Below, in pieces: positions 6,522 through 24,983 of a stretch of 32,000 bases of DNA. A model generated the notes under the pieces. That model saw nothing but the letters and a program-made list of their open reading frames with translations, searched no databases and had not been told where the DNA came from. The position numbers and the translations under genes were made by a program. How positions within the stretch are numbered: position 1 is the stretch's first letter; every line of letters starts with the position of its first letter. The DNA is from Nitrosospira multiformis ATCC 25196 (lineage in GTDB: Bacteria; Pseudomonadota; Gammaproteobacteria; Burkholderiales; Nitrosomonadaceae): contig NC_007614.1 in NCBI RefSeq assembly GCF_000196355.1, forward strand, positions 450,001 to 482,000. Reading direction: 5' to 3'.

Positions 6522-7354
6522 ATCAAGCCTATAAAGGAACACCCTTCGACCTCTCTGGACGGGTGGTGCTCATTAGCGGCGCTACCGGACTTCTCGGCAC
6601 GGAATTCGCCCTCGCAGCCGCGTCGGCCGGTGCGAATCTGGTATTGGGGGATCTGGACGGGGGCAGGCTGGAATTACTGAAAAGTGAGATAGCATCGGCG
6701 TATCCCGACACGCAAAGCTGGGCTCAGGTGTTGGATGTTACCCGCGCGGATTCCTGTCGGTCTATAGCGCAGTCATGCGAAACCCGGTTCGGTCGCATCA
6801 ATGCCGTGGTCCACAGTGCCGCGATCGACCCGAAATTCGAGCAAGGTTCCGATACGTCGCATTTTTCAAAATTCACCGAGTTTCCGGGAGAGCTCTGGCA
6901 ATCCTCTCTTGATGTCAATTTAACCGGCGCTTTCCATCTCGCTCAGGCCACCTGCAGGGTGATGGAAAAAACGGGCAAGGGATCCATTGTTTTTCTGGGC
7001 TCAAATTACGGGCTCGTGGGTCCGGATCAGCGCATCTACAAAAAGGCAGGGCAGGAGGAACAGACCTATAAACCTGCGGTGTATTCAGTGTGCAAGGCGG
7101 GTCTGCTGGGATTGACAAAATTTCTGGCTGCCTACTATATGAACACATCCATCCGTGTAAATATGCTCACGCCCAGCGGCGTCTGGAATCAGCATGGCTC
7201 CGAATTTGTCGATAATTATTCGTCGCGAACCATACTGGGGCGCATGTCGGAAAAAAATGAATACCGGGGAGCGATCATTTTTCTGGTCTCGGATGCATCC
7301 AGTTATATGACGGGCGCAAATCTGGTCATCGATGGGGGATGGACAGCATTATGA
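6518..7354 (+). CDS. short-chain dehydrogenase/reductase (SDR) family oxidoreductase
   Basis: 278 aa. Motifs: cofactor-binding SGATGLLG, catalytic YSVCKAG (YxxxK), and NAVVHSAA. The ATG overlaps the upstream stop (ATGA at 6518-6521). Confidence 0.9.
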   Translation: MNQAYKGTPFDLSGRVVLISGATGLLGTEFALAAASAGANLVLGDLDGGRLELLKSEIASAYPDTQSWAQVLDVTRADSCRSIAQSCETRFGRINAVVHSAAIDPKFEQGSDTSHFSKFTEFPGELWQSSLDVNLTGAFHLAQATCRVMEKTGKGSIVFLGSNYGLVGPDQRIYKKAGQEEQTYKPAVYSVCKAGLLGLTKFLAAYYMNTSIRVNMLTPSGVWNQHGSEFVDNYSSRTILGRMSEKNEYRGAIIFLVSDASSYMTGANLVIDGGWTAL

Positions 7355-7509: not shown

Positions 7510-8619
7510 TCAGCATTTTTCATTTTCCAATACCTCCCAGCAGTGTGCGAGAACCTGAAAAATCAGGGGGTTGCTGGAAATAGCGGCAATTTCATGGTTC
7601 AGCCAGAACGAGGGTTTGGTCCAGTTGAAGCTCCCAAAAATCGACCAAGCGTGATCGCCATCCTCCACCAGCACGAATTTAAGGTGCATGGGAAGCCGCT
7701 CGGGATTCCGGATACGCCTGAACCGGATTCCGGCGGAAGCCAGCCGTCGTTCCACTTTAGGCGTGACGCGTCTATGCGTCGACTCCGCGAATATTTCCAG
7801 TGTAGTGCCCCGCCTGGCAAGCCCTGCCATAACGTCAACCGCACTTTCCGTCCTGATATGTGATGCGACGACACGTATACGGGCACCGCTGTTGACCCGG
7901 CTCAGGAACTGCACGACGGGATGTGGACTGACCCGAGGCCAGAAATGAATTGTGGTATCCGCGCCATGGATGATGCGGCTTGCATGGGTCGAGAACCGAT
8001 AGAAGAGGCCCGGCGGCGACCGGTGAATCTGCCTTGCATGATTCACCAGTCCCTCGACCAGTACCGGATCGTTGAGTCCAACCAACGCATTGTAGCCACG
8101 GTCCTGATCACCGATTTCCCGAATGAGCTCGGGATCGTCTTCCGGCATATTGCCCGAGGGATTGAAGGATCCAATAAAGGCAACGGGTTCTGGATGTGAA
8201 AAACAGTAGAGTTTCTCGTGTAACTGGGGCTTCCACGATTTTGTCGCGGGTGACGGTACGCCGGGGATGGCTATGATGCGAAATGCATCGCCCAGTCCTC
8301 CGGGTCCCGAGAGCATTTTGATCACCGCATCATTGGCGTGAGGAATGCGCGGCCTGCCTTCCAGGCTCAGGGTGACCTGGACGCCCCGCTTGCGCGCCTG
8401 AATCAGCGCTTCCGCCAGACGGAGGTCACGAAAATAATAGGTTACCCAGTCAATGGATCCCCCGGAGGGAACAGCTGTGATGTGTGCGGCCAGAACGTCG
8501 CGCAGATGACCCGGAGCCTGATGGGGACCGCCAAAGTAAATCTCGACCGGAACGGTCTCCATTTCGCTTAGCAAGCCTGAAGAGGGCGGTCTGGGGGAAT
8601 GTGCAAGCGACTTGCTCAA
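7510..8619 (-). CDS. phospholipase D / cardiolipin-synthase-like superfamily protein with two HKD motifs
   Basis: 369 aa. HKD-1 is HEKLYCFSHPEPVAFIGSFNPS and HKD-2 is HLKFVLVEDGDHAWSIFGSFNWT. The listed start is TTG (8619); an alternative ATG lies at 8562 (METVPVEIYFGG). Confidence 0.85.
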   Translation of the reverse strand: MSKSLAHSPRPPSSGLLSEMETVPVEIYFGGPHQAPGHLRDVLAAHITAVPSGGSIDWVTYYFRDLRLAEALIQARKRGVQVTLSLEGRPRIPHANDAVIKMLSGPGGLGDAFRIIAIPGVPSPATKSWKPQLHEKLYCFSHPEPVAFIGSFNPSGNMPEDDPELIREIGDQDRGYNALVGLNDPVLVEGLVNHARQIHRSPPGLFYRFSTHASRIIHGADTTIHFWPRVSPHPVVQFLSRVNSGARIRVVASHIRTESAVDVMAGLARRGTTLEIFAESTHRRVTPKVERRLASAGIRFRRIRNPERLPMHLKFVLVEDGDHAWSIFGSFNWTKPSFWLNHEIAAISSNPLIFQVLAHCWEVLENEKC

Positions 8620-8662: not shown

Positions 8663-10567
8663 TCATGCCAGCCTGCGGCTTTGCGGATGAGCAGATTCTA
8701 CTGTAGTTCCGGTGCGTGTCTGTTTCCTGGAAGTGGACGCTATTACGAGGCGGAAGAAATCAACCAGTTCTGGGACATGATGATCGAATGTGAACAGGTG
8801 CCGCTGCTGCCAGACCCGCTCACGCGTCGCTCGCAACTGCTTGCAGTCGCGCAACTGTGCGGCGAGCTCATCCACGGTATCAAAAAAAATTCCAATATCA
8901 AGCTGCTTTGCTAATGTACGAGTGGCGACGAGAGCATCCTCATTCGCCTTCTGCAGCATCGGCAGGCCGGCCGCTGCAAGGGTACTCAGCCTTGCCGGGT
9001 AGTTCAGGTCATCCCAGTTTGCCCGCCTGATTTCCCCTCTGTTGCTGCTTTCGAAGAGATGCAGCCAGCCCGCGTCATATTGGGAGAACTCGGCAGTCCA
9101 GTGACTTTGATCCACGTTCGGGTGTAAATGCAGGTAGTCTGGCGCGATTGCTTGGGTTTTTTCAATCCATTGCAGCCATTGTCCATGGGTTATCTCCCCA
9201 TAAAAATGCAGATGAATGCCATGGTGGGCCAACTCCGCAACATGATGCGGATGCAGCCCGATGGGTCGTCCGGGTGATACGGTATGAATATCCCCTTCGC
9301 TTTCAGAACGCAGCGGCGCACGAGGCTGATCAAACCAGTCACGCTTCGGCAGGTCTCCATCCAGCACGTGGGTGGGTTTATCCAGCGACAAACCGGGAAT
9401 GATGGTATCAAACCAATCCCGCATTTCGGGGCTGGAGAAGATTTGGCCGTTCGAATACCGGTGCAGGTCGATCAGTTGCGGCCAGGTTCCCTTTTCAAGA
9501 CAGATGAAAGGACCTTCCTTGAAATGCCAGACGAAAGGAATGCCGTGCGTGGCCATCAATACCTCATGTGCAAACGGCACTGCCTGCCAGTTGAGCAATG
9601 CATAGATAACATCAGGCTGCACCTGCTTCACTGCTTCGCGCCAGTTGTCGCGCGGCAGGTCCTCCACATGCCCAAAAGGCATCGGCCCTACCGTGTTGTA
9701 CCAGTACGGGTTCTGCATCCACAGGCCATACAGCTTGTGTCCCCGCTCTTCCAGGGCAAGCACGCGCTCGGCGTTATAGGCCAGTTCTCCTACCAGAAGT
9801 ATTTTCAACCCGTTGTCGGCACGAGGAGTATCCGGCCGTTCGCGCATTTTTCGGTAATGGTCCGCTTCATCGATCCGATGGCCTACGGTTGTATGAAAGC
9901 GCAGCGGTTCTTTGACCCGATAATGGGAGCGAAACGTGTTGATGCCGCCTTCCGGTTCCTGCATGATCTTGTGGCGTTGCATCGGGTGGGAGACCCACTC
10001 GCAGGTAAGAGTTCCGCTTTCGGCAAAAGCGCCGAGGGGCCGCAGCAGGCTCCAGTAGAGGCGCTCAAGATCATCCGACTCCAATTCTGCGCGCTCCACC
10101 CACCGCACCGGCATTTTCCGATGCATGCACTGCACCAGTTGCAAAGGAAATTCCGGAATTTGCCCAATGGCCTCGCGGTTGTAATGGTGGCGAACGCCTG
10201 AACAAGCCAACACAGCGCCTTTCTGCGTCTCGAGGCATGTTTTCAGGCTGCCCAGGTGATCGCGGTAATAAACATCATCGGTTGGCAAGTAAGCGATGAG
10301 CGGCGCTTTTGCTTTGGCAATGCCTTCATTCAGGGTGCGACCCAACCCCCGATTTTCGGGAAAGCGATAGTAATGAATGCGGGTGTCGCCCAGGTATGCC
10401 GATACGACTTCGGCTGTAGCATCCCGTGAACCATCGTCGATGACGACTGCTTCCCAATCCGTCAAAACCTGCGCCTGCAGGCTGTCCAACGCGCGGCCAA
10501 TGAATCGTGCTTGCTCATAAGTGGGAACTACTACGCTGACTGAGGGAGAGTATGTCTGCGGCATCAT
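8663..10567 (-). CDS. bifunctional-looking glycosyltransferase: N-terminal GT2 domain plus a C-terminal GT-B (GT4-like) region
   Basis: 634 aa with an ATG start. GT2 signatures: VSVVVPTYEQARFIGRALDSLQAQ, VVIDDGSRD, YLPTDDVY. The C-terminal half starts with LKILLVGELAYNAE… and ends with a GT-B-like …YPARLSTLAAAGLPMLQK…. Confidence 0.85.
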   Translation of the reverse strand: MMPQTYSPSVSVVVPTYEQARFIGRALDSLQAQVLTDWEAVVIDDGSRDATAEVVSAYLGDTRIHYYRFPENRGLGRTLNEGIAKAKAPLIAYLPTDDVYYRDHLGSLKTCLETQKGAVLACSGVRHHYNREAIGQIPEFPLQLVQCMHRKMPVRWVERAELESDDLERLYWSLLRPLGAFAESGTLTCEWVSHPMQRHKIMQEPEGGINTFRSHYRVKEPLRFHTTVGHRIDEADHYRKMRERPDTPRADNGLKILLVGELAYNAERVLALEERGHKLYGLWMQNPYWYNTVGPMPFGHVEDLPRDNWREAVKQVQPDVIYALLNWQAVPFAHEVLMATHGIPFVWHFKEGPFICLEKGTWPQLIDLHRYSNGQIFSSPEMRDWFDTIIPGLSLDKPTHVLDGDLPKRDWFDQPRAPLRSESEGDIHTVSPGRPIGLHPHHVAELAHHGIHLHFYGEITHGQWLQWIEKTQAIAPDYLHLHPNVDQSHWTAEFSQYDAGWLHLFESSNRGEIRRANWDDLNYPARLSTLAAAGLPMLQKANEDALVATRTLAKQLDIGIFFDTVDELAAQLRDCKQLRATRERVWQQRHLFTFDHHVPELVDFFRLVIASTSRKQTRTGTTVESAHPQSRRLA

Positions 10568-10681: not shown

Positions 10682-12001
10682 TCACCTGTTTTCAATTCTC
10701 GATGCCTGAGCTTGTGTTTCAAGCAGTGTCACATAACGCGGCAATACATCGGACCCGCCCACGTGAAGCATTTCGTTGATGAAGCGTTGCCGGTGTTCCT
10801 CTACATAGAATGAATCGCAGCCATTGGAAAGAAATCCGTCGATTTTCCGGTATACATCATCCCGGCACTTCAATTCCGTCTCCGGCATGAAATGCGCCAG
10901 GGTAGAGCGACCGGCGTGCAGGTAGTCGGCAGCGAGCACCGGTTTTTTTCCTTTGACTGCTTCAAATACTACCGAAGTGGCAAGATCGATAATGACATGG
11001 GCCCAGTTCATCAGATGAACGGAATGGATTTGGTCGGGTGCCACGCTCACATTGGGGAGGTCACGCAACGAGGTATTTCTGGTCAGGGGTTGTCTCCAGC
11101 CGCCACGGGTATGAGGTTTGATCACCAGTTCCACATTCGGAAAAGCTGCAATCATTCCCACAATTTCCTCGACCTCTTCCCAGAAGGTCGTAAAGTTACT
11201 CTTTCTCAGGAATATCAAGACTTTAAGGCCTTTTGTTTTCGTGGACTCCTTCACTCTTTTTGGCTCCTTCCCGGGGTGGATAGCAGGCGGGGCGGGAGAA
11301 AGTTCTGCCAATTTCACCAGCCACTCGTCACAGTAGCGAGGGGAGCCGAGGACGGCGATGGATTGATCGTCCAGGAATGGGCGAAAACGTTCCGCGCATA
11401 ACTCGTTGGGGACCACCAGCTTGTCGAATATGCTTGCTGCGGAGTAGAGGGAATTCGGCTTGAGACTCCGCTCGTGATGCCGTATCAGCTGGCTGGCATG
11501 CGGACTGTCTCCGTGTGGCAACGAAACCGTGCCCAGACCCTTGCTCCGCGCGAGGGAAACAACCACTTCGACCCATTCCACCGAAACAGGCGAATCCCTT
11601 GTGATCCAGTCAAACACCACTACGCCTCTGTCAGCAGCGGTGAAGCTGCGTTCCAGCAATCTGCCGGCAGTGCTGCGCCAGATCGATTGACGCCGGTCTA
11701 CCCTGTACGCGCGAGCAAGTGCATCGACAAGCGGACCCATTATCGATCGTCGCAAGCGGCTGGCCAGAAGCAGTGTCTGTAGCCGCCACCCTAAAAATTC
11801 CCAGGAGGGCAGGAGATCGCGAATATGGGCAACACGCGCCCCCTCCAGTGTACCCAGAAATTCAACACGGTAATCATTACGGAATTTCGGATTGCCTATC
11901 AATACAACATCGCACCGGTGACCGGACTCGAGCCATTTTGAGATAACCGGTGTAATATGGTCTATATCATTGTAATGTCGGAGAAAAAAGAGCGCTTTCA
12001 T
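10682..12001 (-). CDS. uncharacterised conserved protein, paralogue A (GT-B/epimerase-like features; family not recognised)
   Basis: 439 aa with an ATG start. It is about 70% identical to the product of 27865..29187 (42/60 identical over the first 60 residues by manual count). Conserved blocks: MKALFFLRHYNDIDHITPV, GTVSLPHGDSPHASQLIR, IKPHTRGGW, IIDLATSVVFEAVK-GKPVLAADYLHAGRS. Confidence 0.8.
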   Translation of the reverse strand: MKALFFLRHYNDIDHITPVISKWLESGHRCDVVLIGNPKFRNDYRVEFLGTLEGARVAHIRDLLPSWEFLGWRLQTLLLASRLRRSIMGPLVDALARAYRVDRRQSIWRSTAGRLLERSFTAADRGVVVFDWITRDSPVSVEWVEVVVSLARSKGLGTVSLPHGDSPHASQLIRHHERSLKPNSLYSAASIFDKLVVPNELCAERFRPFLDDQSIAVLGSPRYCDEWLVKLAELSPAPPAIHPGKEPKRVKESTKTKGLKVLIFLRKSNFTTFWEEVEEIVGMIAAFPNVELVIKPHTRGGWRQPLTRNTSLRDLPNVSVAPDQIHSVHLMNWAHVIIDLATSVVFEAVKGKKPVLAADYLHAGRSTLAHFMPETELKCRDDVYRKIDGFLSNGCDSFYVEEHRQRFINEMLHVGGSDVLPRYVTLLETQAQASRIENR

Positions 12002-12316: not shown

Positions 12317-13270
12317 ATGATAAATAAGGAACTGGATGCGGGATACCAGGAAGGTAATATTGTGCAGATGCTGACGATAGAGCCGGGGGCCGACCTGAGG
12401 GCACCCGAGTTGCAGCGTGCGGCAATCGACATGTTGGAAGGGGGTGGTGTCATCTATCTGCCCAAAAGTGGATTTGAGTTGTCCTGCCATGAGAGAGAGC
12501 TGATTTCGGATACGGCGAATATCCTGTCTCGAACGCCAGATGTCGAGGATGGACGTCCAACCATCATTTTTGATCCAGAGCGTGGGCGTATCAAGAAGTA
12601 TCATTATGCCCAAGTGCGGGGAAAGATGATGCGGGCTCAGGTCAAGAACACAGCCCGTCCCCAGATCGAGGCGATGATGTCGCGCTACAGCAAATGGACA
12701 GAGAGTGTCATCACTCAATTGTTTCCCAGCTATCAGGGAGCCTTGGAGCGGAAACGCGTTACTTATCGTCCTTTCCCCCGTAATAACATCCAATCCCTGC
12801 ACATTGATTCAAGCTACGGCTATCCCACCCAGGGACGAGGCATGCTGCGTGTGTTTTCCAATATCAATCCCACTGACAGGCTGCGTATCTGGCAGCTCGG
12901 CGAACCGTTTGAACCCTTCGTGCGGCGCTTTTTGCCTGCCGCGCACCCGAGTGAGCCGAGTTGGATCACCTCTATCCTGGGTCGCCTCGGCATCATAGAC
13001 GGCCCCAAGACCCGATACGACCGTTATATCGCAACGCTGCGTTCGCTCGGCATGCGCGACAAGGAGTACCAGCGGACGGCCCCGCGCAAGATCATGGAAT
13101 TTCCTGCAGGCGCGAGCTGGATTGCGATCACCGATCTGGTGTTGCATGGGGCCATATCGGGGCAGCATAGTCTCGATCAGACCTTCTATTTGCCCGTGGA
13201 GGCGATGAAGGATTCCTCGCGCTCATCATTGCGCATTCTGGAGAGGTTGGCGGGCAAGGCTTTGGTTTAA
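12317..13270 (+). CDS. kdoO: Kdo hydroxylase (KdoO)-like Fe(II)/2-oxoglutarate dioxygenase family protein
   Basis: 317 aa with an ATG preceded by AAGGAA. It matches my recollection of the KdoO/Kdo_hydroxy family: …LHIDSSYGYPTQGRGMLRVFSNINP…RIWQLGEPFEPF…, …MEFPAGASWIAITDLVLHGAISGQHSLDQTFYLP…. The HxD-type facial triad is plausible (HID…H). Assigned from memory, not from a search. Confidence 0.62.
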   Translation: MINKELDAGYQEGNIVQMLTIEPGADLRAPELQRAAIDMLEGGGVIYLPKSGFELSCHERELISDTANILSRTPDVEDGRPTIIFDPERGRIKKYHYAQVRGKMMRAQVKNTARPQIEAMMSRYSKWTESVITQLFPSYQGALERKRVTYRPFPRNNIQSLHIDSSYGYPTQGRGMLRVFSNINPTDRLRIWQLGEPFEPFVRRFLPAAHPSEPSWITSILGRLGIIDGPKTRYDRYIATLRSLGMRDKEYQRTAPRKIMEFPAGASWIAITDLVLHGAISGQHSLDQTFYLPVEAMKDSSRSSLRILERLAGKALV

Positions 13271-13464: not shown

Positions 13465-14769
13465 ATGAGTGCCTGGAGTCTCGACAGAATTACGCAGGCA
13501 TTGAGTGGTGCAATGTGGACGTTTTCCTCTCTGCCTGAGGACAACTCGGCCGCCACTTTCGTCCATCGATGTTTCCGGCGGGAAAGCTGGCGAGGTGCCG
13601 GGTTTCGCGAACGCACCCTCATGTATGCAGCCTTACCGTTTGCGCCATTCGTCACCCTGGTGTTGGCTATCGCCTTCACTGCGCTTAACGGACAGGCTAT
13701 AAAGAAGCGGACCGGAAAAGGGATAATCCGGCAAATCCGGGAACAGTTTGAGATTGCGCTGCGATACGCGATTTTGCCCCCCTGGTATTATATTTTTGAA
13801 CTGCATGACGGCGACAAGCGGCGGCGCGCTTCTGAATACATCAACCGCTTTGAAGTAAAAACCTGCCTCTACCGCATCCTCCGTGACTACAATGGCGGCC
13901 TTCCCATCCCTGCAGAGCGCAGTACCTTCTGCATCAAGGACAAATTATGCTTCCTGTCACGCTGTCGCAGGTTCTCTATTGCCACAGCTCCTGTGTTTTT
14001 GATTGTCTCGAAGGGGGAGATCAAAGCAATTGATTGGGGCGGGTCCCTGCTCCCGGAAACCGATCTGTTCGTGAAACCGCTCCAGGGGGAGAACGGAAGG
14101 AACGCGGTACGATGGGATTATCTGGGTTCGGGGCAATATCGGCGCAACGATGGTAAACACGCCACCGCTCAAGAGGTGCTGGAGGGGTTATGCAAGGCAT
14201 CATGGCGCAGGTCTTTCCTGGTGCAGCCCCGGCTTATTAACCATAGAGAAATTGCCGATCTTGCAAATGGCACCTTGGCGACGATACGGGTAATGAGTTG
14301 CCGCAATGAGCGGGGCGAATTCGAGGCAACCAATGCGGTTTTTCGAATGGCGCAAAATGAGACCGTAGTTGTCGATAACTTTCACAGAGGCGGAATCGCA
14401 GTCAATGTCGATCTTCATACCGGCAAATTGGGAAGGGGCGCCTGCGGAGCGTGGGGATCCACAGGAGGAGGATGGTACGAGCGACATGACAAGACGGGTG
14501 TGCAGATTCTGCACCGCGAGCTTCCGTGCTGGCCCGAGTTGCTCGCGATGGTTCGATACGCCCATGGGAGCGCCTTCTCCGACCAGGTGGTAATCGGCTG
14601 GGATGTTGCCCTGCTCGACAGCGGGCCGTGCATGGTTGGAATCAACAAGGCCCCCGATCTGGACATGATCCAGCGGATAAGCCGGCGTCCGCTGGGTAAC
14701 GAGCGGTTCGGAAAGCTTCTGGCATTCAACCTGGAACGCACTGTCGAGGCTGTGCATCAATCTTCTTAA
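13465..14769 (+). CDS. sugar-transfer-associated ATP-grasp family ligase (ATPgrasp_ST-like), copy 1, with an N-terminal hydrophobic anchor
   Basis: 434 aa. ATG 13465 is the first start after an in-frame TGA at 13405-13407. ATP-grasp C-terminal signatures: LFVKPLQGENGRN, DNFHRGGIAVNVDLHTGKLG, GWDVALLDSGPCMVGINKAPDLDMIQ. A hydrophobic stretch is present (AALPFAPFVTLVLAIAFTAL). It is ~73% identical to copy 2 over a hand-counted 101-aa block. Confidence 0.8.
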   Translation: MSAWSLDRITQALSGAMWTFSSLPEDNSAATFVHRCFRRESWRGAGFRERTLMYAALPFAPFVTLVLAIAFTALNGQAIKKRTGKGIIRQIREQFEIALRYAILPPWYYIFELHDGDKRRRASEYINRFEVKTCLYRILRDYNGGLPIPAERSTFCIKDKLCFLSRCRRFSIATAPVFLIVSKGEIKAIDWGGSLLPETDLFVKPLQGENGRNAVRWDYLGSGQYRRNDGKHATAQEVLEGLCKASWRRSFLVQPRLINHREIADLANGTLATIRVMSCRNERGEFEATNAVFRMAQNETVVVDNFHRGGIAVNVDLHTGKLGRGACGAWGSTGGGWYERHDKTGVQILHRELPCWPELLAMVRYAHGSAFSDQVVIGWDVALLDSGPCMVGINKAPDLDMIQRISRRPLGNERFGKLLAFNLERTVEAVHQSS

Positions 14770-14975: not shown

Positions 14976-16271
14976 ATGAATGAGAAAGTCACAGTTCCTT
15001 GCAGTCCGATATACGAAGCGCGCGCGTGGCAAGAGGTCGCCGCAAAGTTTGTGCTGCTGTTTTTCGGCATCGCTTTATGGAGCAAATGGCTGAGCCTGGG
15101 TACCGGTATCCTTCTGACCTTCATCTGGATTCTCGATAGCGGCCCTCGCAGGCTCGGCCAGATCATTAGAGAGCCACTCGTGCTGGGAATACTCCTTCTG
15201 TGTGCGGTAGTGGCGGTGGGACTCCTTTGGGCAGATTATCCGGAGGCAGGGCGAATGAAATGGAGGCGATATTTTGGCTTCCTGGTTTTCATCCCGTTTT
15301 TATCGCTTCTCAATAGACACCGCTTGCCTTGGGCGATTGCCGGCCTGCTCACGGGTTACATCATTGTCCTGTTGTCAGGTGTTTACCAATGGGCTGTTTC
15401 CGGAGTGCAAGGCATCCCCCCACTTAACATCAGCTATCTCGTGTTTTCCTCCCTGCTGGGGATCGGTGTCATTCTTTTACTCTACCTTGCCACGGCCATC
15501 GGCGAGATAAAATGGAAATGCGTCTTGGGGCTCGGGAGCTTGTTTTTATTGCTGATCCAGTTTGGGCAATATGGACGCGGTCCCTTGCTGGCCACGCTTC
15601 TTGCCGTTTTTTTGATGGTTTTCCTGACTTATAAAACGGAAAGAAAAGCACTCCTGGGTATCATTGCATCGCTGACTATTGTGGTTGCGGTTCTGGTATA
15701 CGGCAGTAACAGCTTTCAGGCCAGACTTGAGCAGGTGGAGGTCGAAGCCAAGTTGTCCCAGCAGGGAAAATACGATACCAGCCTGGGCTACCGGCTGGCT
15801 ATGTGGGATGTCGGCCTGCACGGAATTCTGGAGCATCCGTTCTTTGGCCATGGCACCGGGATGCCGGAAAGCTATTTCGAAAAAACCGTGGCAACCTATA
15901 AGGGCGGAATTTACAGGGATTTACCCCAGTATGTAGGAGCGTCTCATTATCATAATGACTGGATCGAGATTGGAATGCATACGGGCGCACTGGGAATTCT
16001 GGCTTACGGCTTTTTCCTGTGGAGCTGGTTTCAGACACTGAGAGCGCACCGTCTTCCAGTTCTAGGGGCGGCTTTGGTGTTCTTCATCTTCCTCTCCGGT
16101 TTGACGGATACTTTTGCCCTTTACAGCAAGATTCCTACCTTTCTCGTGGTCATCACCGCCATAGCCATAGCCTGGCAGAAGGAAGGAAATTGGCGGAAAA
16201 ATCAGGAAGCTTCATTCAGCAACTCCCTGCCCGCCCGGTCTCCCGGGCCTGAACGGCTAGAGAATATATGA
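14976..16271 (+). CDS. O-antigen ligase / Wzy_C family polytopic membrane protein (ligase, polymerase or O-oligosaccharyltransferase type)
   Basis: 431 aa, multi-TM throughout. It has a periplasmic-loop signature typical of the Wzy_C domain: LGYRLAMWDVGLHGILEHPFFGHGTG … SHYHNDWIEIGMHTGALG. Confidence 0.85.
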   Translation: MNEKVTVPCSPIYEARAWQEVAAKFVLLFFGIALWSKWLSLGTGILLTFIWILDSGPRRLGQIIREPLVLGILLLCAVVAVGLLWADYPEAGRMKWRRYFGFLVFIPFLSLLNRHRLPWAIAGLLTGYIIVLLSGVYQWAVSGVQGIPPLNISYLVFSSLLGIGVILLLYLATAIGEIKWKCVLGLGSLFLLLIQFGQYGRGPLLATLLAVFLMVFLTYKTERKALLGIIASLTIVVAVLVYGSNSFQARLEQVEVEAKLSQQGKYDTSLGYRLAMWDVGLHGILEHPFFGHGTGMPESYFEKTVATYKGGIYRDLPQYVGASHYHNDWIEIGMHTGALGILAYGFFLWSWFQTLRAHRLPVLGAALVFFIFLSGLTDTFALYSKIPTFLVVITAIAIAWQKEGNWRKNQEASFSNSLPARSPGPERLENI

Positions 16272-16402: not shown

Positions 16403-16420
16403 GCTCAGGACTCATTAATT
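16403..16420. repeat. IS terminal inverted repeat (transposase-distal end)
   Basis: GCTCAGGACTCATTAATT matches the reverse complement of 17226-17243 (GTTCAGGACCTATTAATT) at 15/18 positions. The transposase stop codon (16415-16417) lies inside this repeat. Confidence 0.78.
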
Positions 16421-17172
16421 GAGATAGAAGATGACAGTTGCGGCGATACAGATGGCAGAGAAGAAGGTATGGGCACAGCGGTCGTAACGCATGGCGATCC
16501 TGCGCCAGTCCTTGAGCCGAGCGAACATGTTCTCGATCCTGTGCCTTTGCCTGTAGAGGGTCTTGTCGTATTTGATCTGGATTTTGCGATTCCTTTTTGT
16601 CGGTATGCAGGGCGTCATGCCTTTGGCACGCAACGCTGCCCGGAACCAGGCAGCGTCATAGCCGCGGTCTGCAATCAGGGTTTTGGCTTTGGGCAATGAC
16701 GGCAGCAGCACACGTGCTCCCTTGTAATCGCTCATCTGCCCTTCGGACAGGAGCATGGCCACAGGCTTGCCCTGACCGTCGCAGACCACATGAAGCTTCG
16801 AGTTCAGGCCGCCCTTTGTGCGACCGATACGGCGGGGAACATCCCCTTTTTTAGCAGGCTGGCTGCCGTGCGGTGGGCCTTCAGATGCGTGGCGTCGATC
16901 ATCAGCCTCTCGGGCGTTTCCTCTTTACCGGTCAGTTCCACAAAGATGCGGTTGAACACGCCCAGTCGGCTCCAGCGCACGAAACGGTTATACAGTGTCT
17001 TGTGCGGCCCGTATTCCCTGGGGGCATCCTTCCATTGCAGGCCATTCCGAATGACGTAGATGATCCCGCTGATCACCCGCAGATCATCAACACGGGGAAC
17101 TCCGTGGGACAAGGGAAAATAAGGTTTTATACGGTTGAACTGTGTTTCCGACAGGTAAAACAAATCTCTCAT
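16415..17172 (-). CDS. IS5-family DDE transposase, expressed as an orfA-orfB fusion by programmed -1 ribosomal frameshift
   Basis: orfA (17172-16804) begins MRDLFYLSETQFNRIKPYFPLSHGVPRVDDLRVISGIIYVIRNGLQWKDAP…. orfB (to 16415) contains …LIADRGYDAAWFR… and …RHRIENMFARLKDWRRIAMRYDR (DDE_Tnp_1-type D, D, E). orfB is in the -1 frame relative to orfA. Reading through the slip gives …LLKK GDVPRRIGRTKGGLNSKLHVVCDGQGKP…. Confidence 0.9.
16846..16852 (-). other. programmed -1 frameshift slippery heptamer A AAA AAG
   Basis: The minus strand reads CTA AAA AAG GGG at the orfA/orfB overlap. This heptamer at this position is typical of the IS427 group and other IS families with two-ORF transposases. Confidence 0.72.
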
Positions 17173-17208: not shown

Positions 17209-19119
17209 CTATTCGTGAATCATGAAATTAATAGGTCCTGAACCTAGTTGCCGAACCGGATCAGGATTGGCGAGCATCTTCCCGATCTCGATGCTGTCTC
17301 GGACGCATTCGAGATTATCCTGCCACATGCCGACGAGAATGACGGGTCGCGTCGTAGGGGATTCCGACGGATACCAGAGATCGTACATGGCGCCGCTGTC
17401 GCCGAATATGTTGCGCGAACGTATTTCCATGGGTTTGCCCCGATTATAGAAAGTGACGATGCTGGCCACGGACCACTTGCTCATGCCCACGACGATGGGC
17501 TCCTGGCCGGTTTGCCGCCGCGTATCCTCTACAATCTGCTCGATGCCCATCGTTGCCTGGCGCCAGAAATAATGCTCGGGGAAACCTTTATATATGCCCT
17601 GGTAGGGAATGCCTGGGAAGCCGAGAACGAGGTAGTGCAGTGCAATCGCATAACAAACCAGGCATGCCAGAATAGTGGGCCTCCAAGCTGCCATTACCCG
17701 ATCCGCAATCGTCGGGTTACCAGAGAAATTTCGCATTTTCCCCATCATCGAAGCCATGGCAGGCAGTGCCATAAGCCATAGCGGCCCGGTCCAGTGGAAC
17801 CGCTGGGTGTCGAAAATGCTGAGAATCAGGAAGATCGCCAGCGGCACGCCGGTGAATACCATAATGAACAGGCGGCGCCTGCAAATGGAGACGCTATTAT
17901 TCTGCCGGGTGCCGGGCAGCAATACTAGCGCGGCAGCGAGCAAGCCGGTCGGCGTAAGCAGTACGGCAAAATGAAGAATCAATTCGAATAATCCGAACTC
18001 GTCATCTCCTACGCCCCTGACGCGGCCGGACTGGAACAATATCGACATCCAGCCATGCTCCATGTTCCAGATAATTACGGGGGAGAACAAGAGCAGTGCA
18101 AGCAGTACAGCGAGGTACGGATAAGGATGGCGCAACCAGCGGCGTGCAACCGGGTCGATAATCACAAAAACCAGTGCGGCAATACCCACCAAACCCAGGG
18201 TATACTTGGAGAGAATGCCCAGACCGAAGGCAATGCCCACCCCGAGCCAAGCCCGCTCCCGCTGGGCGATCAGGGCCTGCTCGAGATAGTACAGAGTTGC
18301 AGCCCACGCGGCCACGAGCGGCGCATCTGTCGTCATCAATGCGCCAGTAGCAAAGAAAAAGGGAAGAATCGCAAGCAGCAGCACAGCGCGAATCCCCGTT
18401 GCGCTATCGTATAGATTGCGTGTGAGCGCAAATAAATACCCCATTGTTATCAAGCCGCACAGGAATGCTCCGACCCGGACGCCAAATTCGCTGTTTCCAA
18501 AAATGGATGTGCCAAGCCATATCAACCAGGCAACCATAGGTGGGTGATCGTAGAAACTCAGATCCATGTGCTGGGCGTAATTCCAGTAATATGCTTCATC
18601 AGGAATCAGTTGCGCCACGCCAATGTAGATGAGGCGCAACAGGATGACAAATGCGATGATCCCGAAAGAGGCGATGCGCCAGTCTGCCTCAGGCGAGGGT
18701 AGGGCGTTCCCGCTGGGGATCACGTAGAAAACAGATCCCAGATACAACATTACGGCTGTGGCCGCGATTGCAGGGAGTATGGCCGCAGCCGGCGGTATAT
18801 CCCAGGCCTGGATTAGCACCGCTAATAGGCCGCCGCGCACGGAAAGCGCCAGCACACAGATAACCAGGAAGCGGCCGAGCTCAGTCCATCTGGAATAGCC
18901 CGCGAGGTCGTATAAAAGCCGCGGTCTCGAAATAAACCAGTAGTGCAAGGTCGCAGCCGCGAGGAAGCCCACGATATGCGACAGGGCGAGGTTTGCCCCA
19001 TAGCTCATCAGCGACTCGAACAGCAGTCCGTCGAGGAACGCGGCCAATAACCCTGGGACTGCAAAACGACTGTGATCCGGAAATAGGGGACGTCGCCCAA
19101 CTCCAGCCAGCTCAAGCAT
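17209..19119 (-). CDS. GtrA-like 4-TM N-terminal region fused to a GT39/GT83-type (ArnT/PMT_2) lipid-carrier-dependent glycosyltransferase; 3' end truncated by IS insertion
   Basis: PMT_2 signature: PDEAYYWNYAQHMDLSFYDHPPMVAWLIWLGTSIFGNSEFGVRVG, followed by many TM segments and a soluble C-terminal domain. The start is taken at ATG 19119, preceded by AAGGAG 9 nt upstream; the listed TTG at 19149 is less likely. The last 11 codons (GSGPINFMIHE*, 17244-17209) are encoded by the IS end. Confidence 0.88.
   Translation of the reverse strand: MLELAGVGRRPLFPDHSRFAVPGLLAAFLDGLLFESLMSYGANLALSHIVGFLAAATLHYWFISRPRLLYDLAGYSRWTELGRFLVICVLALSVRGGLLAVLIQAWDIPPAAAILPAIAATAVMLYLGSVFYVIPSGNALPSPEADWRIASFGIIAFVILLRLIYIGVAQLIPDEAYYWNYAQHMDLSFYDHPPMVAWLIWLGTSIFGNSEFGVRVGAFLCGLITMGYLFALTRNLYDSATGIRAVLLLAILPFFFATGALMTTDAPLVAAWAATLYYLEQALIAQRERAWLGVGIAFGLGILSKYTLGLVGIAALVFVIIDPVARRWLRHPYPYLAVLLALLLFSPVIIWNMEHGWMSILFQSGRVRGVGDDEFGLFELILHFAVLLTPTGLLAAALVLLPGTRQNNSVSICRRRLFIMVFTGVPLAIFLILSIFDTQRFHWTGPLWLMALPAMASMMGKMRNFSGNPTIADRVMAAWRPTILACLVCYAIALHYLVLGFPGIPYQGIYKGFPEHYFWRQATMGIEQIVEDTRRQTGQEPIVVGMSKWSVASIVTFYNRGKPMEIRSRNIFGDSGAMYDLWYPSESPTTRPVILVGMWQDNLECVRDSIEIGKMLANPDPVRQLGSGPINFMIHE
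17226..17243. repeat. IS terminal inverted repeat (transposase-proximal end)
   Basis: The plus strand reads AATTAATAGGTCCTGAAC. Its reverse complement, GTTCAGGACCTATTAATT, pairs with 16403-16420. Confidence 0.78.
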
Positions 19120-19344
19120 TTTTTCCTGCTCCTTTGGAAACCATATCAAGTTGACTTTGTTCTGTTTTTCTCGCTTGTGCCGATTTTATCTATTCTGCTC
19201 TCGGATAAGATAGAAGATAACTCTGGAATTCATTTTTGTCCCCCTCATCTTGTAGCACAAGTTCGCTATACGGAGGCTTGCAGACTCTGATTCAGCTATC
19301 ATTCCGGCGTCGTCGGAATACTGGCTGCGTCTTCTGTTCACCGC

Positions 19345-20058
19345 TCAACCTGTATGGCCGGTCAATCCGGTGTCTGCGTAGTAATGCCGGATTGGATGCA
19401 GGTTATCGTCAAGCTCATAGATCAGTGGACGACCAGTGGCCACTGACAATTTTATGAGCTGAATAATGGATAGGCCATCCAACTGCATTATCAACCCTCT
19501 CAGGATATGCTTGTGGGCGACAATGAGCACTCGCTTGCCGCGCTGGATTTCCGGGGTGATTGTTTGCTGCCAGTAAGGCAGCATTCGCGCGAAGGCTTGT
19601 CGCATGCTCTCACCAAGCGGCAGTTCCCCAGGATCGATGGTTGCATAGCACGCCTGGTTTCCGGGAAAACGGATATCGGCAGGATCAAGTGGGGGTGGCG
19701 GAGCATCAAAACGGCATTGCGAACTGAGAATAGGGCAAAAGCCGTATTTCCTGATTGCCTTCCAGCGATTGATTCCTTCCAGAGCCCCATAGTGGCGTTC
19801 ATTCAAGCGCCAGTTTCGTTGCACCACCGGTTCATCCTGCCCCATGACCGATAGCACGATGCGGAGCGTGTCATTCGCGCGGCTGAGCTCGGAGGTGAAG
19901 CAGATATCGAACTTGTGTCCTGCTTTTTTCAAGAGATTGCCCGCCTGCTCTGCCTCCCGCTCGCCTCGGGGCGTCAAAGGAGCATCCCCCCACCCGGTAA
20001 AGCATCCGTCGCGGTTCGAGACGCTTTCTCCATGTCGCAGCAGAACGAGTTGTGTCAT
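19345..20058 (-). CDS. gpmA: 2,3-bisphosphoglycerate-dependent phosphoglycerate mutase-like histidine phosphatase
   Basis: 237 aa with an ATG start. Motifs: [29 protein letters not shown] (RHG motif), [39 protein letters not shown]. It departs from the canonical dPGM at RHGESxWN (here SN) and AHGNSLR (here AHKHILR). Confidence 0.72.
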
Positions 20059-20327: not shown

Positions 20328-20786
20328 TCAAGGCCAACAGGAGATGAGCTGCTCCTTTATCAGCCGATTGGTGTCGGCATCCGTCTTTGTAGCCTTGTTG
20401 AAGTCTGGCGGACCCGGCCAGCCGGAATCGATGAATTTCACGCCGTTGAAATAGCGGCCTTCCCCATATCGCGGAATGACATGAAAATGTACATCCGGAT
20501 CGACCATCATCAGCATGAGGTAGTTGAGCTTGTCGTAGTTGAATGCTTTAGCCAAAGCCGATTCCAGCTGGCCCGTTATTTTGTGAAGCTCAGTAAAGCT
20601 TTCCTGACCAAGCTGGGAGAAGGAGCGGGCTGGCTCATGCGCAGCAAGAACGAGAGAACCCAGGGTCACCTGGATTGGACGCAGCATGACGATCCAGTGC
20701 TGAAATTGATGAATGATTGTCCCCGGCGCGCCGAATTTCCGCATCGTGGGATTTAGGATTGCGGTACCGGAGGGGGTGGGAGTCAT
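20328..20786 (-). CDS. HIT (histidine triad) family protein
   Basis: 152 aa with an ATG start. The triad region is MMVDPDVHFHVIPRY (the first His of HxHxHxx is Asp here). The upstream …WIVMLRPIQVTLGSLVL… is typical of HIT beta-strands. Confidence 0.75.
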   Translation of the reverse strand: MTPTPSGTAILNPTMRKFGAPGTIIHQFQHWIVMLRPIQVTLGSLVLAAHEPARSFSQLGQESFTELHKITGQLESALAKAFNYDKLNYLMLMMVDPDVHFHVIPRYGEGRYFNGVKFIDSGWPGPPDFNKATKTDADTNRLIKEQLISCWP

Positions 20787-21180: not shown

Positions 21181-22503
21181 ATGAAGATTGTGAATGATCT
21201 GGGTATCGACAGGATCACCCGGGACTTGAGCGGTGCCATGTGGATCTTTGGTCGCTTGCGTGAAGACGATAGCTCCACGGCGACTTTTATCCACCGCTGC
21301 TTCCAGCGCGAGATCTGGCGCGAGATCAGGTTACGCGACAGGATCGCGATGTGCGCAGTTTTGCCAGCCGTACCGCTCGTCATCATGGGGGTGACCGCTG
21401 TCTTCACCGCGCTCAACGGATCGGCTATAAAGAGACGCACGGGAAAAGGAATCATCCGGCAGATTCGCGAGCAGATCGAACTTGCGCTCCACTGTGCGAT
21501 CCTGTCTCCCTGGTACTACATCTTCGAGTTGCATGACGATGACAAGAAGCGGCACGCCGGAGAGTATCTGAATCGCCTCGAAACCAAGGCCGGACTTTAT
21601 CGCTTCCTGCGCGATTACAATGGCGGTCTTCCTGTTCCTGCTGTGCGAAGCACTCCCTGCATTTCCGACAAATCGTGCTTCATGGCTCGTTGCCGCGAGC
21701 ATGGAATCATGACAGCCCCTGTATTCTTCAAGATCATGGGAGAGAAGGTCACAGCAGTGGATTGGAATGGCACCGGCCTGCCGGAGACCGATCTCTTTGT
21801 AAAGCCATCGCATGGGCGGGGCGGTAGAAATGCGACTCGCTGGATTTACCTCGGTTCAGGGCAGTACCGGCGCAACGATGGCGAGATTCTGACCGGAACT
21901 CAGTTGCTGGAGCGCTTGCGACTGGAATCACGGCAAAAAGCTTTCCTGATTCAGCCTCGGCTTCTGAATCATGAGGATATCGCAGATCTTGCCAATGGTA
22001 CGCTGGCGACAGTGCAGGTAATGAGCTGCCGTAACGAGCGGGGCGAATTTGAAGTAATCAATGCAGTTTTTCGGATGGCCCGGAAAAAATCCGTGATAGT
22101 GGACAATTTTCACGCTGGAGGAATTGCAGCCAACGTCGATATTCGCACCGGTGAATTGGGGAGAGGAACCGGTGGCGCGTGGGGCGCCACTGCTGATGGA
22201 TGGTACGAGCGCCACTGCGAGACGGGGGTGCAGATCCTGCACCGGAAGCTTCCATGCTGGCCTGAGCTGGTCGATCTCGTGCAATACGCTCACGCCAGCG
22301 CCTTTTCCGATCAGGTGGTAATCGGATGGGATGTTGCCCTGCTCAACAGCGGACCGTGCATAATGGAGGCCAACAAGGCGCCTGATCTGGACATTATTCA
22401 GAGAGTGGGAGGCGGTCCGGTTGGCGAGCAGCGACTGGGAAAACTTCTGGCATTTAATCTCAGACGAACCGTCGAGACTAAATACAACAGGCCTGCCCCC
22501 TAG
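21181..22503 (+). CDS. sugar-transfer-associated ATP-grasp family ligase (ATPgrasp_ST-like), copy 2
   Basis: 440 aa with an ATG preceded by GAAGGAAG. It is collinear with 13465..14769 along its whole length: DNFHAGGIAANVDIRTGELG, GWDVALLNSGPCIMEANKAPDLDIIQ, and a hydrophobic anchor (AVLPAVPLVIMGVTAVFTAL). Confidence 0.82.
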   Translation: MKIVNDLGIDRITRDLSGAMWIFGRLREDDSSTATFIHRCFQREIWREIRLRDRIAMCAVLPAVPLVIMGVTAVFTALNGSAIKRRTGKGIIRQIREQIELALHCAILSPWYYIFELHDDDKKRHAGEYLNRLETKAGLYRFLRDYNGGLPVPAVRSTPCISDKSCFMARCREHGIMTAPVFFKIMGEKVTAVDWNGTGLPETDLFVKPSHGRGGRNATRWIYLGSGQYRRNDGEILTGTQLLERLRLESRQKAFLIQPRLLNHEDIADLANGTLATVQVMSCRNERGEFEVINAVFRMARKKSVIVDNFHAGGIAANVDIRTGELGRGTGGAWGATADGWYERHCETGVQILHRKLPCWPELVDLVQYAHASAFSDQVVIGWDVALLNSGPCIMEANKAPDLDIIQRVGGGPVGEQRLGKLLAFNLRRTVETKYNRPAP

Positions 22504-23285: not shown

Positions 23286-23407
23286 ATTGCAATCCGCTCC
23301 CTCGAAATCGAATAAGCTCTGAAGTTATATTTTTAAAGCATTGCCGGGTTTGTATCTGGCCGCTTGACGTGGAGTGAGTGGAGATGCGGCTGAGAATGAG
23401 GCTGTAT

Positions 23408-24975: not shown

Positions 24976-24983
24976 CTGCTGTT

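Follow-up and report, generated by a model that had tools for sequence, protein, structure and literature searches.

Two paralogous ATP-grasp proteins near a Kdo 3-hydroxylase gene in Nitrosospira multiformis: candidate modifiers of the lipopolysaccharide inner core

The window analysed here, a stretch of 32,000 nucleotides from Nitrosospira multiformis ATCC 25196 (contig NC_007614.1, positions 450,001 to 482,000), carries two related ATP-grasp genes, referred to as copies A and B, within a lipopolysaccharide (LPS) cluster. This arrangement raises the question of what the two proteins act on, and whether both of them are working enzymes. The original prediction, made from the DNA letters alone, regarded them as two amidoligases that decorate acidic sugars produced by the locus. 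Our findings suggest a different partner. In the explanation that we favour overall, to which we give about an even chance of being right as a whole, the pair belongs to a subfamily of ligases that work with the Kdo 3-hydroxylase KdoO on lipid A-core, B being the catalytic copy and A an impaired or specialised partner. The features on which this argument draws are collected in Table 1.

Table 1. Coordinates of the genes and protein segments discussed, numbered from the first letter of the window.
Feature	Position	Strand	Remarks
Kdo 3-hydroxylase KdoO (PF11004)	12317..13270	+	194 bp upstream of copy A, same strand; Pfam E 2.5e-90
Copy A, ATPgrasp_ST paralogue	13465..14769	+	434 aa; degenerate type: G392 for the Mg-bridging Glu, N210 for the Gly-loop Gly
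Hydrophobic membrane-anchor helix of A, aa 52-74	13618..13686	+	KD19 2.15; inside model helix H47-83
A K204 (FVKP), ATP-phosphate-binding Lys, then Gly-rich loop G208-E-N210-G211	14074..14076	+	K invariant 117/117; aligns with RimK K141
A metal-site segment D380...G392-I-N394, canonical D...E-x-N without the Glu	14602..14646	+	hhalign to RimK, DdlB
Wzy_C / O-antigen-ligase-like membrane protein	14976..16271	+	Pfam E 1.2e-22; same LPS cluster; co-located in Nitrosospira loci
GtrA + PMT_2 (ArnT-like) lipid-linked glycosyltransferase	17209..19149	-	Pfam E 3e-54; weak ArnT NCBIfam match
Small ORF, divergent from B	20328..20786	-	Pfam HIT E 0.002, below cutoff
Copy B, ATPgrasp_ST paralogue	21181..22503	+	440 aa; complete catalytic set K164, K208, D384, E396, N398
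Hydrophobic membrane-anchor helix of B, aa 55-78	21343..21414	+	KD19 2.28
B metal-site segment D384...E396-A-N398, intact D...E-x-N	22330..22374	+	hhalign to RimK, DdlB

The two collinear paralogous reading frames that had been predicted were recovered with exact coordinates, and BLASTP aligns them from residues 6 and 9 to residues 429 and 433 (A and B, respectively) with 284 of 425 positions identical (67%), 79% positives and a single gap. Both C-terminal ATP-grasp motifs also hold up, reading DNFHRGGIAVNVDLHTGKLG and GWDVALLDSGPCMVGINKAPDLDMIQ in copy A and DNFHAGGIAANVDIRTGELG and GWDVALLNSGPCIMEANKAPDLDIIQ in copy B, as does the N-terminal hydrophobic segment, of which each copy has a single one. 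Membership in the Pfam family ATPgrasp_ST (PF14397) was confirmed by scores of 107.5 bits for A and 105.1 bits for B (E ~1e-30), far above the gathering score of 31.4 bits, with the match to the model beginning at residue ~154. Only one other Pfam family, PF14398, was reported, as a weak match in both copies; the TupA-like family PF14305 gave no match in A or B at E <= 0.1, and membership in it is ruled out. With the TIGR02291 model of RimK-related alpha-L-glutamate ligases the scores (21.8 and 33 bits) stayed far below its cutoff of 314.2, and the match spanned the C-terminal 110 residues only.

NCBI names the homologues of A and B sugar-transfer associated ATP-grasp, and the ATPgrasp_ST family is reported to have been defined under that description, by comparative genomics, by Iyer et al. 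in 2009. It is large: 436 cluster representatives are recovered at E <= 1e-30, and more distant members number in the thousands. A full-text literature search found no characterised member of PF14397, and PDB sequence searches with the single protein and with a 40-sequence profile found no solved structure of the family and no ATP-grasp match, returning nothing beyond chance matches of the hydrophobic helix to GPCR TM6-TM7. A and B are near-tandem-derived paralogues in a distinct PF14397 subfamily. They share the family model and the surface-glycan context with PF14397 at large; the subfamily adds a conserved helical N-terminus of ~150 aa with its anchor, which lies outside the Pfam model, and a specific linkage to KdoO and LptF/LptG.

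The AF2 model of copy A (pLDDT 87.8, pTM 0.87) places this N-terminus in a structural context. Residues 1-170 are modelled exclusively as helices, and the first strand does not appear before residue 179. The alpha/beta substrate domain that precedes the ATP-grasp in related enzymes is absent from the model, and no Pfam match falls in the N-terminal region. The subfamily layout is accordingly an all-helical N-terminal stretch with one hydrophobic helix (Kyte-Doolittle 19-residue mean > 2.0), followed by the ATP-grasp catalytic domain. A Foldseek search with the model returned 185 PDB matches at E <= 0.001, and the best 50 of the 185 are all ATP-grasp enzymes, headed by RimK, Ddl, LysX/ArgX and an L-amino-acid ligase (E ~1e-6, probability 1.0); sequence identity in these top matches is just 12-18%, with TM-scores of ~0.38 by query and ~0.55 by target. 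The catalytic region is thus predicted, at the level of the model, to have the fold of the ATP-grasp superfamily. These closest solved folds carry a canonical alpha/beta pre-ATP-grasp N-domain where A and B have the helical, membrane-anchored region.

The C-terminal flank of the single helix is the more positive side in 109 of 114 homologues, and because of this bias, together with fusion to cytoplasmic KdoO, the catalytic domain is likely to be cytoplasmic. A simple N-out/C-in arrangement does conflict with the fusion proteins that contain two modules, in which the two hydrophobic helices cannot both be passes of that kind; these fusions suggest a monotopic anchor, with a cytoplasmic N-terminus.

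The catalytic residues separate the two copies. Using hhalign in local mode, D380, position 392 and N394 of copy A correspond to D248, E260 and N262 of RimK and to D257, E270 and N272 of DdlB, and K160 and K204 pair with K100 and K141 of RimK in a collinear but weak local alignment (E 0.12). Because each template is a single sequence, these residue alignments are statistically weak, and it is the register of the motifs alone that is convincing. K160, K204, D380 and N394 are invariant in 117 of 117 homologues; position 392 varies. The E-x-N motif is found in B and in 92 of the 117, while A has G-I-N there, inside the second motif. The K...K...D...E-x-N set of RimK, D-Ala-D-Ala ligase and LysX-ArgX is therefore common to B, including the Mg-binding triad D...E-x-N, whereas A lacks the Glu of that triad. 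The original prediction was made conditional on the ATP-binding residues being in place: they are complete in B, and in A one of them is missing (G392).

How copy A should be regarded depends on this position. In the tree, the Glu at 392 was lost once, in a monophyletic, Nitrosospira-specific A clade of 13 loci, and every Glu-lacking sequence among the 86 tree-mapped genes falls in that clade. Residue 210 follows the same division, being N in 13/13 members of the A clade and G in 73/73 of the others. Two trivial explanations can be set aside. A sequencing error at G392 is ruled out, as G is present in the four N. multiformis orthologues, and a decaying pseudogene is ruled out by a full-length ORF in 13 genomes with dN/dS ~0.13. 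Median dN/dS is 0.126 in the A clade and 0.110 in the B clade, and judged by these ratios the A clade remains under purifying selection. In all genomes with an A-type copy (13/13, by record names and tree), an E-type copy is also present. Nitrosomonas has one copy only, of the E-type, and it adjoins kdoO.

Since A is strongly conserved, lies beside kdoO and is always accompanied by an intact paralogue, we regard it as a partner of B that is either impaired in catalysis or specialised, a reading that we consider about evenly balanced against the alternatives. The partnership may, for example, take the form of a hetero-oligomer of which A supplies one half. By analogy, such a pair would mirror the double-module fusions P0121 and P0276, in each of which one module is divergent and the other canonical. 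Copy A may nonetheless have activity, its metal being coordinated differently. A stronger version of this possibility, in which A is fully active and sub-functionalised for another substrate or metal geometry, the changes at E392 and G210 retuning rather than disabling it, seems to us somewhat unlikely, although it is the best-placed of the competing explanations. Purifying selection acts equally strongly on the two copies, all the remaining catalytic residues of A are kept, A retains the ancestral position beside kdoO, and G210N need not be damaging because the equivalent RimK residue is Gln. Against these points stand the retention of the Glu in 92/117 homologues and its loss, among the 86 tree-mapped genes, in the A clade alone, the alignment of the missing residue with the Mg-bridging Glu of both RimK and DdlB, the impossibility of metal ligation by Gly or Ala, and the fact that an A-type copy is never alone. 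For the same reason, the absence of the Mg-bridging Glu, the earlier suggestion of two active enzymes serving two acceptors or amines is doubtful.

The partner of these proteins becomes apparent from their neighbours. Compared with the solved KdoO structure 5y9i, the KdoO of the window gives an alignment at E 5e-43 in which the HxD...H iron-site motifs are in register ('lHiD' and 'vlHga' against 'lHvD' and 'vlHav' in 5y9i), and on this sequence evidence it is assigned as a genuine Kdo hydroxylase. Copy A adjoins kdoO on the same strand; copy B does not in this window, where it lies 7.9 kb from kdoO. No terminator-like site was found between kdoO and A, and scans for promoters and terminators near the two copies gave background levels.

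A neighbour census by tblastn mapping and annotated contigs covered the 70 homologous genes that have 1.5 kb or more of flanking sequence on either side. In 28 of the 70, KdoO was located within 600 bp and on the same strand; in 38 of the 70 it was within 5 kb. The linked cases occupy deep branches of the tree, occur in both gene orders, and span Acidobacteria, Binatia, Delta- and Gammaproteobacteria, Dongiaceae, Nitrospira and Nitrosomonadaceae; some of these loci contain no other glycan, O-antigen or capsule genes. The KdoO/ATP-grasp pair is itself duplicated in two loci (L051 and L060), and three divergent proteins, mutually 47-48% identical over 98-99% of their length, fuse ATPgrasp_ST to Kdo_hydroxy. 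The LPS export genes LptF/LptG adjoin the ATP-grasp gene in four further loci (L083-L085 and L042). About 40% of assessable homologues lack KdoO within 10 kb, including those of alphaproteobacterial clades (Dongia, Hyphomicrobiales). Taken together, these observations make it very probable that the subfamily is a functional partner of KdoO, a linkage to KdoO/LptFG of which our literature search found no description. In other lineages a ThuA gene recurs after kdoO; it is absent from the window. We considered ThuA as an ammonia donor of the glutamine-amidotransferase type and set it aside, given an alignment with no evident Cys-His-Glu triad and this absence.

KdoO acts on Kdo2-lipid A at the cytoplasmic side of the inner membrane, turning its outer Kdo into Ko. 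Given KdoO as the conserved partner, the KdoO fusions and the LptF/LptG neighbours, the substrate of the ATP-grasp enzyme is probably the Kdo/Ko of lipid A-core. In the proposed mechanism, the enzyme would act on the same membrane-bound glycolipid as KdoO, and a carboxylate, most simply the C1 carboxylate of Ko/Kdo, would be activated to an acyl-phosphate by ATP-Mg. The activated group would then be coupled to a nucleophile, for which we favour a small common amine or amino acid, yielding an amide. This would leave the LPS inner core modified and less anionic ahead of its export by LptB2FG. Amidation of the carboxylate in particular, through an acyl-phosphate, is a tentative choice. Our literature search turned up neither a Kdo/Ko carboxylate that is amidated or derivatised in another way nor an LPS structure from Nitrosomonadaceae.

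Carboxylate activation as such is plausible because the fold is nearest to RimK and Ddl and because at least 13 contigs encode a fusion of ATPgrasp_ST with an acylphosphatase domain. Together with a biochemical precedent, these features make the ligase mechanism of the original prediction reasonable. The precedent is the C-terminal domain of Cj1438 (Cj1438C) in Campylobacter jejuni HS:2, which, according to PMC11800379 with reference to Riegert et al. 2022, uses ATP to join serinol-P or ethanolamine-P through an amide to the C6 carboxylate of capsule GlcA. It is an ATP-grasp enzyme of a glycan locus acting on a sugar carboxylate, and the best available parallel for the chemistry proposed for A and B. 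It belongs to the TupA-like family and thus to another Pfam family than A and B. It carries a fused GT2 domain instead of a membrane anchor, modifies a capsule repeat unit where lipid A-core is proposed here, and receives its amine donors from dedicated neighbouring PLP enzymes and a HAD phosphatase. The earlier statement that such proteins have no established substrate therefore stands for ATPgrasp_ST and does not extend to this sister family.

The acidic sugars of the locus itself are an unlikely target. Under that proposal, A and B would both be active amidoligases on the NeuB-type nonulosonate and the KdsB/aldolase product of an O-antigen or capsule, with different acceptors or amines. The window does encode NeuB, three CMP-transferases, a KdsB-subfamily enzyme and an HpaI-like aldolase, and in Nitrosospira copy B is consistently flanked by an NTP-transferase/HAD/epimerase/PGDH/aldolase/KdsB operon of the sugar-acid or glycerate type; Cj1438C offers an example of the chemistry. 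The partner conserved across phyla is nevertheless KdoO, with LptF/LptG in places, and not the NeuB, KdsB or aldolase pathways, and it is retained even where O-antigen and capsule genes are missing and in fused form. B and the sugar-acid operon are convergent with overlapping stop codons and so are not co-transcribed, and their association may be positional because B adjoins KdoO-A in two other loci (L012 and L014, in the order KdoO-A-(small ORF)-B). The missing Glu of A again argues against two active enzymes, and no aminotransferase, decarboxylase, PLP enzyme or other obvious dedicated amine-donor gene was found in the window.

An equally improbable alternative retains KdoO as the partner and changes the bond that is formed. 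The enzyme would be an ester or lactone ligase that uses the hydroxyl made by KdoO, attaching an amino acid or other carboxylate to the 3-OH of Ko in the manner of D-Ala-D-Lac ligases, or lactonising the Ko/Kdo carboxylate with a sugar hydroxyl. That the coupling to a hydroxylase looks obligatory would follow most simply if the hydroxyl it installs were the reacting group, the D-Ala-D-lactate ligases 1e4e and 1ehi are among the Foldseek matches listed, and the acylphosphatase fusion suits any acyl-phosphate route. Ester formation is, however, a minority chemistry among ATP-grasp enzymes, the hydroxyl may have no role beyond recognition, and about 40% of homologues have no KdoO nearby. A kinase of the ATP-grasp fold that phosphorylates a hydroxyl of Kdo/Ko or another core sugar with no ligation is very unlikely: phosphorylated Kdo occurs in some LPS and Asp1/PPIP5K2 are among the Foldseek matches listed (E ~2e-5), but ligases rank first with higher TM-scores, the acylphosphatase fusion indicates an acyl-phosphate rather than a phosphoester, and the weak sequence similarity is to the RimK-related ligases of TIGR02291.

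The favoured reading, a KdoO-partnered ligase on lipid A-core, can be placed alongside known inner-core remodelling. In Burkholderia, Yersinia and Acinetobacter, KdoO-dependent formation of Ko takes place in the inner core, and in Burkholderia an ArnT-type enzyme adds Ara4N to Ko. The window likewise has KdoO and an ArnT-like PMT_2/GtrA transferase, which is consistent with a Ko-centred core modification module. To our knowledge, the described Ko pathways include no ATP-grasp enzyme, and the step proposed for A and B would be an extra reaction at the cytoplasmic face.

No part of LPS is more conserved than the Kdo region. Its carboxylates contribute to binding the divalent cations that stabilise the outer membrane and influence how cationic peptides, polymyxins, antibodies and the Lpt export machine recognise LPS. 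Our findings raise, as a possibility we hold only tentatively, a widespread and undescribed modification of this region in which a KdoO-partnered ATP-grasp enzyme derivatises the Ko/Kdo carboxylate, represented in Nitrosospira by B and the pseudo-enzyme A. If so, the product would be an amide of ammonia, an amino acid or an amine, or else an ester or lactone with the 3-OH installed by KdoO, and LPS would lose a conserved negative charge at its base in nitrifiers, Acidobacteria, Binatia, Salinisphaera and others. An ATP-dependent enzyme that alters Ko/Kdo would represent a new class of lipid A-core modification and give the uncharacterised PF14397 a new biochemical role, of relevance to the cell surface of ammonia-oxidising bacteria. 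Fusion and adjacency to KdoO sharpen the vague annotation as a glycan-associated ATP-grasp into a specific hypothesis and, if the reading of A holds, the A/B pair would offer a clean natural enzyme/pseudo-enzyme duplication in cell-envelope biosynthesis.

Two other neighbours recur in these loci. The small HIT-like ORF is located directly upstream of the B-type copy in Nitrosospira and is conserved in 17 loci. The GtrA + PMT_2 gene is present in 25 of 78 loci, recurring near KdoO/ATP-grasp in Nitrosomonadaceae and Nitrospira, and in two loci (L002 and L030) it takes the form of a GT2-GtrA-PMT_2 fusion.

The window is a surface-glycan/LPS region in which copies A and B were originally predicted to be collinear paralogues encoding membrane-anchored ATP-grasp amidoligases that decorate acidic sugars. 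The observations behind this prediction held: both ORFs exist, their products are identical at 284 of 425 positions (67%, one gap), and each carries both quoted ATP-grasp motifs and one strong hydrophobic N-terminal segment (A 52-74, B 55-78). In the proposed HMM search, both scored 105-107 bits for PF14397 (“sugar-transfer associated ATP-grasp,” cutoff 31.4; E ~1e-30); the amidoligase interpretation was borne out in part. Judged from their sequences, A and B are bona fide members of PF14397, a family that is, to our knowledge, known solely as a comparative-genomics prediction. Their only further signals were a weak PF14398 and a sub-threshold TIGR02291 (RimK-related) match, and membership in the TupA-like or RimK families was rejected. 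The closest relatives are Nitrosospira multiformis proteins with 88-91% identity, which marks the window as DNA of a Nitrosospira-like ammonia oxidiser. The class is that of glycan-modifying ATP-grasp ligases, of which the A/B subfamily is a variant; new here are its architecture, its coupling to KdoO and LptFG, including fusions, and a degenerate paralogue. With moderate confidence, we explain A and B as two membrane-anchored ATP-grasp ligases that are coupled to KdoO and act on the Kdo/Ko of the lipid A-core, with B catalytic and A degenerate.

The conserved partner of the A/B subfamily is KdoO, the Kdo 3-hydroxylase (PF11004, Kdo_hydroxy). The KdoO of the window is clearly homologous to the enzyme of known crystal structure (E 5e-43, iron ligands aligned), and of 78 loci mapped by tblastn, 41 have KdoO no more than 10 kb away. 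Flanks of at least 1.5 kb were available on both sides of 70 genes; 28 of these have KdoO on their own strand within 600 bp, and 38 have it within 5 kb. These adjacencies occur on the deepest tree branches, in both gene orders, and range over Nitrosomonadaceae, Nitrospira (one gene between), Acidobacteria, Binatia, Delta- and Gammaproteobacteria (Salinisphaera) and Dongiaceae. In a distant Acidobacterium the homologue begins 10 bp after the Kdo_hydroxy gene, in non-glycan surroundings (PTS genes, an esterase and a peptide-binding protein), and in L051 and L060 the ATP-grasp/KdoO pair itself is duplicated. An exhaustive representative search (436 representatives at E <= 1e-30) revealed a fusion, P0134, of ATPgrasp_ST followed by Kdo_hydroxy (E 8e-76), and a follow-up search added two more from different data sources (P0274 and P0275; 47-48% identity over 98-99% of P0134). 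Since all three diverged fusions keep canonical ATP-grasp motifs, with the KdoO HxD motif seen in P0134 and P0275, the fusion is real and maintained. In L042 and L083-L085, the gene directly adjoins lptF/lptG, which encode the LPS-export permease, and kdoO (with ThuA) is near. The literature search found no paper tying KdoO or Ko to an ATP-grasp enzyme.

A ThuA-like gene (PF06283) directly follows kdoO in L050, L051, L053, L058, L059, L060, L062, L083 and L084, forming a three-gene ATP-grasp-KdoO-ThuA module in these other lineages that lacks its ThuA member in the window. In the ThuA-like proteins, the motif GHHDYxxGC and seven His residues do not vary; an amidotransferase triad is not evident.

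No solved structure for A/B was detectable by sequence. The AlphaFold2 model computed for A from an alignment of 40 sequences has high confidence (pLDDT 87.8, pTM 0.87). It is wholly helical over residues 1-170, with the hydrophobic stretch inside a 37-residue helix (47-83), followed by an alpha/beta ATP-grasp core. In the best 50 of 185 Foldseek matches, the nearest were amide-forming ATP-grasp ligases: RimK, the D-Ala-D-Ala and D-Ala-D-Lac enzymes, LysX/ArgX and an L-amino-acid ligase (E ~1e-6, TM ~0.38 by query and 0.55 by target, identity 12-18%). Profile-to-sequence alignments, statistically weak but collinear, fix the register of the motifs and place D380/E392/N394 (A numbering) at RimK D248/E260/N262 and DdlB D257/E270/N272, K160 and K204 at RimK K100 and K141, and the loop G208-x-210-G211 at RimK G145-T-Q147-G148. 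Across 117 full-length homologues, K160, K204, R280, E282, R294, N305, H307, W379 and D380 are invariant, D304, N394, K395, D400 and Q403 nearly so, and position 392 is E in 92; copy A and the orthologues close to it have G, A or Q there. The ATP-binding residues, which the original prediction needed to be intact, are complete in B (K164, K208, D384, E396 and N398 in B numbering), whereas A departs from the canonical Mg triad at position 392.

E392 is ancestral in a neighbour-joining tree of 86 homologous genes, drawn from 76 species-representative loci and the window. Its single loss falls in a monophyletic clade of 13 genes, specific to Nitrosospira, where the residue is A in seven, Q in one, and G in four N. 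multiformis strains and the window. All 13 also carry G210N in the Gly-rich loop (G in 73/73 others), and further changes are R297Q, A393I and I401M; because RimK itself has Gln at the equivalent of 210, only the loss of Glu is clearly serious. Decay of the A clade is rejected by its median pairwise dN/dS of 0.126, beside 0.110 in the B clade. At least one gene retaining the Glu (E-type) accompanies the A-type gene in 13/13 genomes, sharing its locus in L003, L006, L012, L014 and the window; in the remaining eight it lies on another contig of that assembly. The order kdoO - A - small HIT-like ORF on the opposite strand - B in L012 and L014 shows A and B to be near-tandem duplicates inside one cluster; in the window lineage, a Wzy_C/PMT_2/dPGM block and later an IS element now lie between them. 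Tandem paralogues recur in L051, L057, L060, L063, L072 and L084. In both double-module fusions, P0121 and P0276, the N-terminal module has lost residues invariant elsewhere (H307 to F/C, W379 to F/L, K395 to A/G) and the C-terminal one is canonical, a theme that the Nitrosospira pair fits by a different lesion. On this analogy we prefer to read A as a partner of B that is impaired in catalysis or has become specialised; it may instead be an active enzyme whose metal binding was retuned.

In 109 of 114 homologues, positive charge is higher on the flank C-terminal to the helix (median net +5 versus +1), which predicts a cytoplasmic ATP-grasp domain, consistent with ATP use and the KdoO fusions. 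The N-terminal ~50 residues are conserved, with H34 invariant, and may be periplasmic, or the helix re-entrant. P0121 and P0276 contain two helix-plus-ATP-grasp units per chain with no extra hydrophobic segment between, so both helices cannot be simple N-out/C-in passes; this favours a monotopic anchor, or the placement of one module outside the cytoplasm. The puzzle is that, with simple transmembrane passes, both catalytic domains could not be cytoplasmic. The representative search also found other subfamily fusions, in P0189, P0255 and P0129/P0136: one with a sulfotransferase domain, one with an acylphosphatase domain and, for a large 600-640-aa group, one with an N-terminal polytopic membrane domain of ~220 aa that has no Pfam match.

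The only carboxylates of Kdo2-lipid A are those of Kdo/Ko. KdoO reportedly works on this glycolipid at the cytoplasmic face of the inner membrane, as attributed to Chung and Raetz, 2011. Sharing this compartment, and sometimes the polypeptide, with KdoO, the ATP-grasp domain most plausibly acts on the same glycolipid: the anchored enzyme would meet it at the cytoplasmic face and derivatise the Ko/Kdo carboxylate in an ATP-dependent step via an acyl-phosphate. Such activation is favoured by the ligase folds being nearest, by a recurrent relative, P0255 (a four-sequence cluster on at least 13 contigs), in which an acylphosphatase domain is fused on, and by Cj1438C of the sister TupA-like family, which amidates capsule glucuronate using ATP (PMC11800379). 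We infer that the derivatisation is most likely amidation with a common amine, preferred because donor-synthesis genes are absent from many loci; no aminotransferase or other obvious amine-donor gene was found in the window. The literature search yielded no precedent for amidated Kdo/Ko and no LPS structure for Nitrosomonadaceae. Esterification or lactonisation with the KdoO-made 3-OH is one possible alternative to amidation and phosphorylation another; ATP-grasp kinases ranked below amide-forming ligases among the Foldseek matches listed. The modification would affect a very conserved part of LPS.

Features of the window around copies A and B
Feature	Position	Strand	Remark
NeuB + CMP-transferase/HAD fusion	563-2646	-	
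ORF without Pfam match	2773-4206	-	
CMP-transferase, GFO-type oxidoreductase, SDR	4627-7354	+	
PLD-like (PLDc_2)	7510-8619	-	
GT2	8663-10567	-	
ORF without Pfam match	10682-12001	-	
KdoO, Kdo hydroxylase	12317-13270	+	194 bp upstream of A
Copy A	13465-14769	+	434 aa
Wzy_C/ligase-like	14976-16271	+	
IS5-family transposase, split	16415-17172	-	DDE domain 16415-16789, DUF4096 16804-17172
ArnT-like GtrA+PMT_2 transferase	17209-19149	-	
dPGM-type mutase	19345-20058	-	
Small ORF, weakly HIT-like	20328-20786	-	followed by B
Copy B	21181-22503	+	440 aa
Operon: NTP-transferase, HAD, epimerase, PGDH-like dehydrogenase, HpaI/GarL-like aldolase, KdsB-subfamily cytidylyltransferase	22500-27507	-	convergent
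ORF without Pfam match	27838-29187	+	
GT2	29096-30280		

The A-to-B distance of 6.4 kb in the window exceeds the 5.8 kb seen in L003 and L006 of N. multiformis, so the IS5-family element looks like a window-specific insertion between the Wzy_C and ArnT-like genes. The stop codons of B and the convergent NTP-transferase gene overlap by 4 nt (22500-22503), leaving no room for a terminator between. This operon, with its HAD phosphatase, SDR epimerase/dehydratase and HpaI/GarL-type pyruvate aldolase members, stays beside B-type copies in Nitrosospira. Its KdsB-subfamily cytidylyltransferase scores above the NCBIfam cutoff, and together with the nearby dPGM-type mutase the operon resembles an unusual pathway, either to a 2-keto-3-deoxy sugar acid or derived from glycerate. 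The NeuB-family synthase (291 aa), which precedes the CMP-transferase/HAD fusion, and the separate trio with a GFO/IDH/MocA oxidoreductase are second and third nonulosonic/ulosonic-acid activation systems in one 32-kb window. The PLD-like gene, whose product could be a phosphotransferase on lipid or glycan, accompanies the cluster in 22 loci and lies directly 3' of kdoO in Nitrosomonas (L002 12454-13545). Three ORFs of 439-477 aa have no Pfam match even at E <= 1 and are kept with the cluster in 17-24 related loci; the last overlaps the next GT2 gene by 92 nt.
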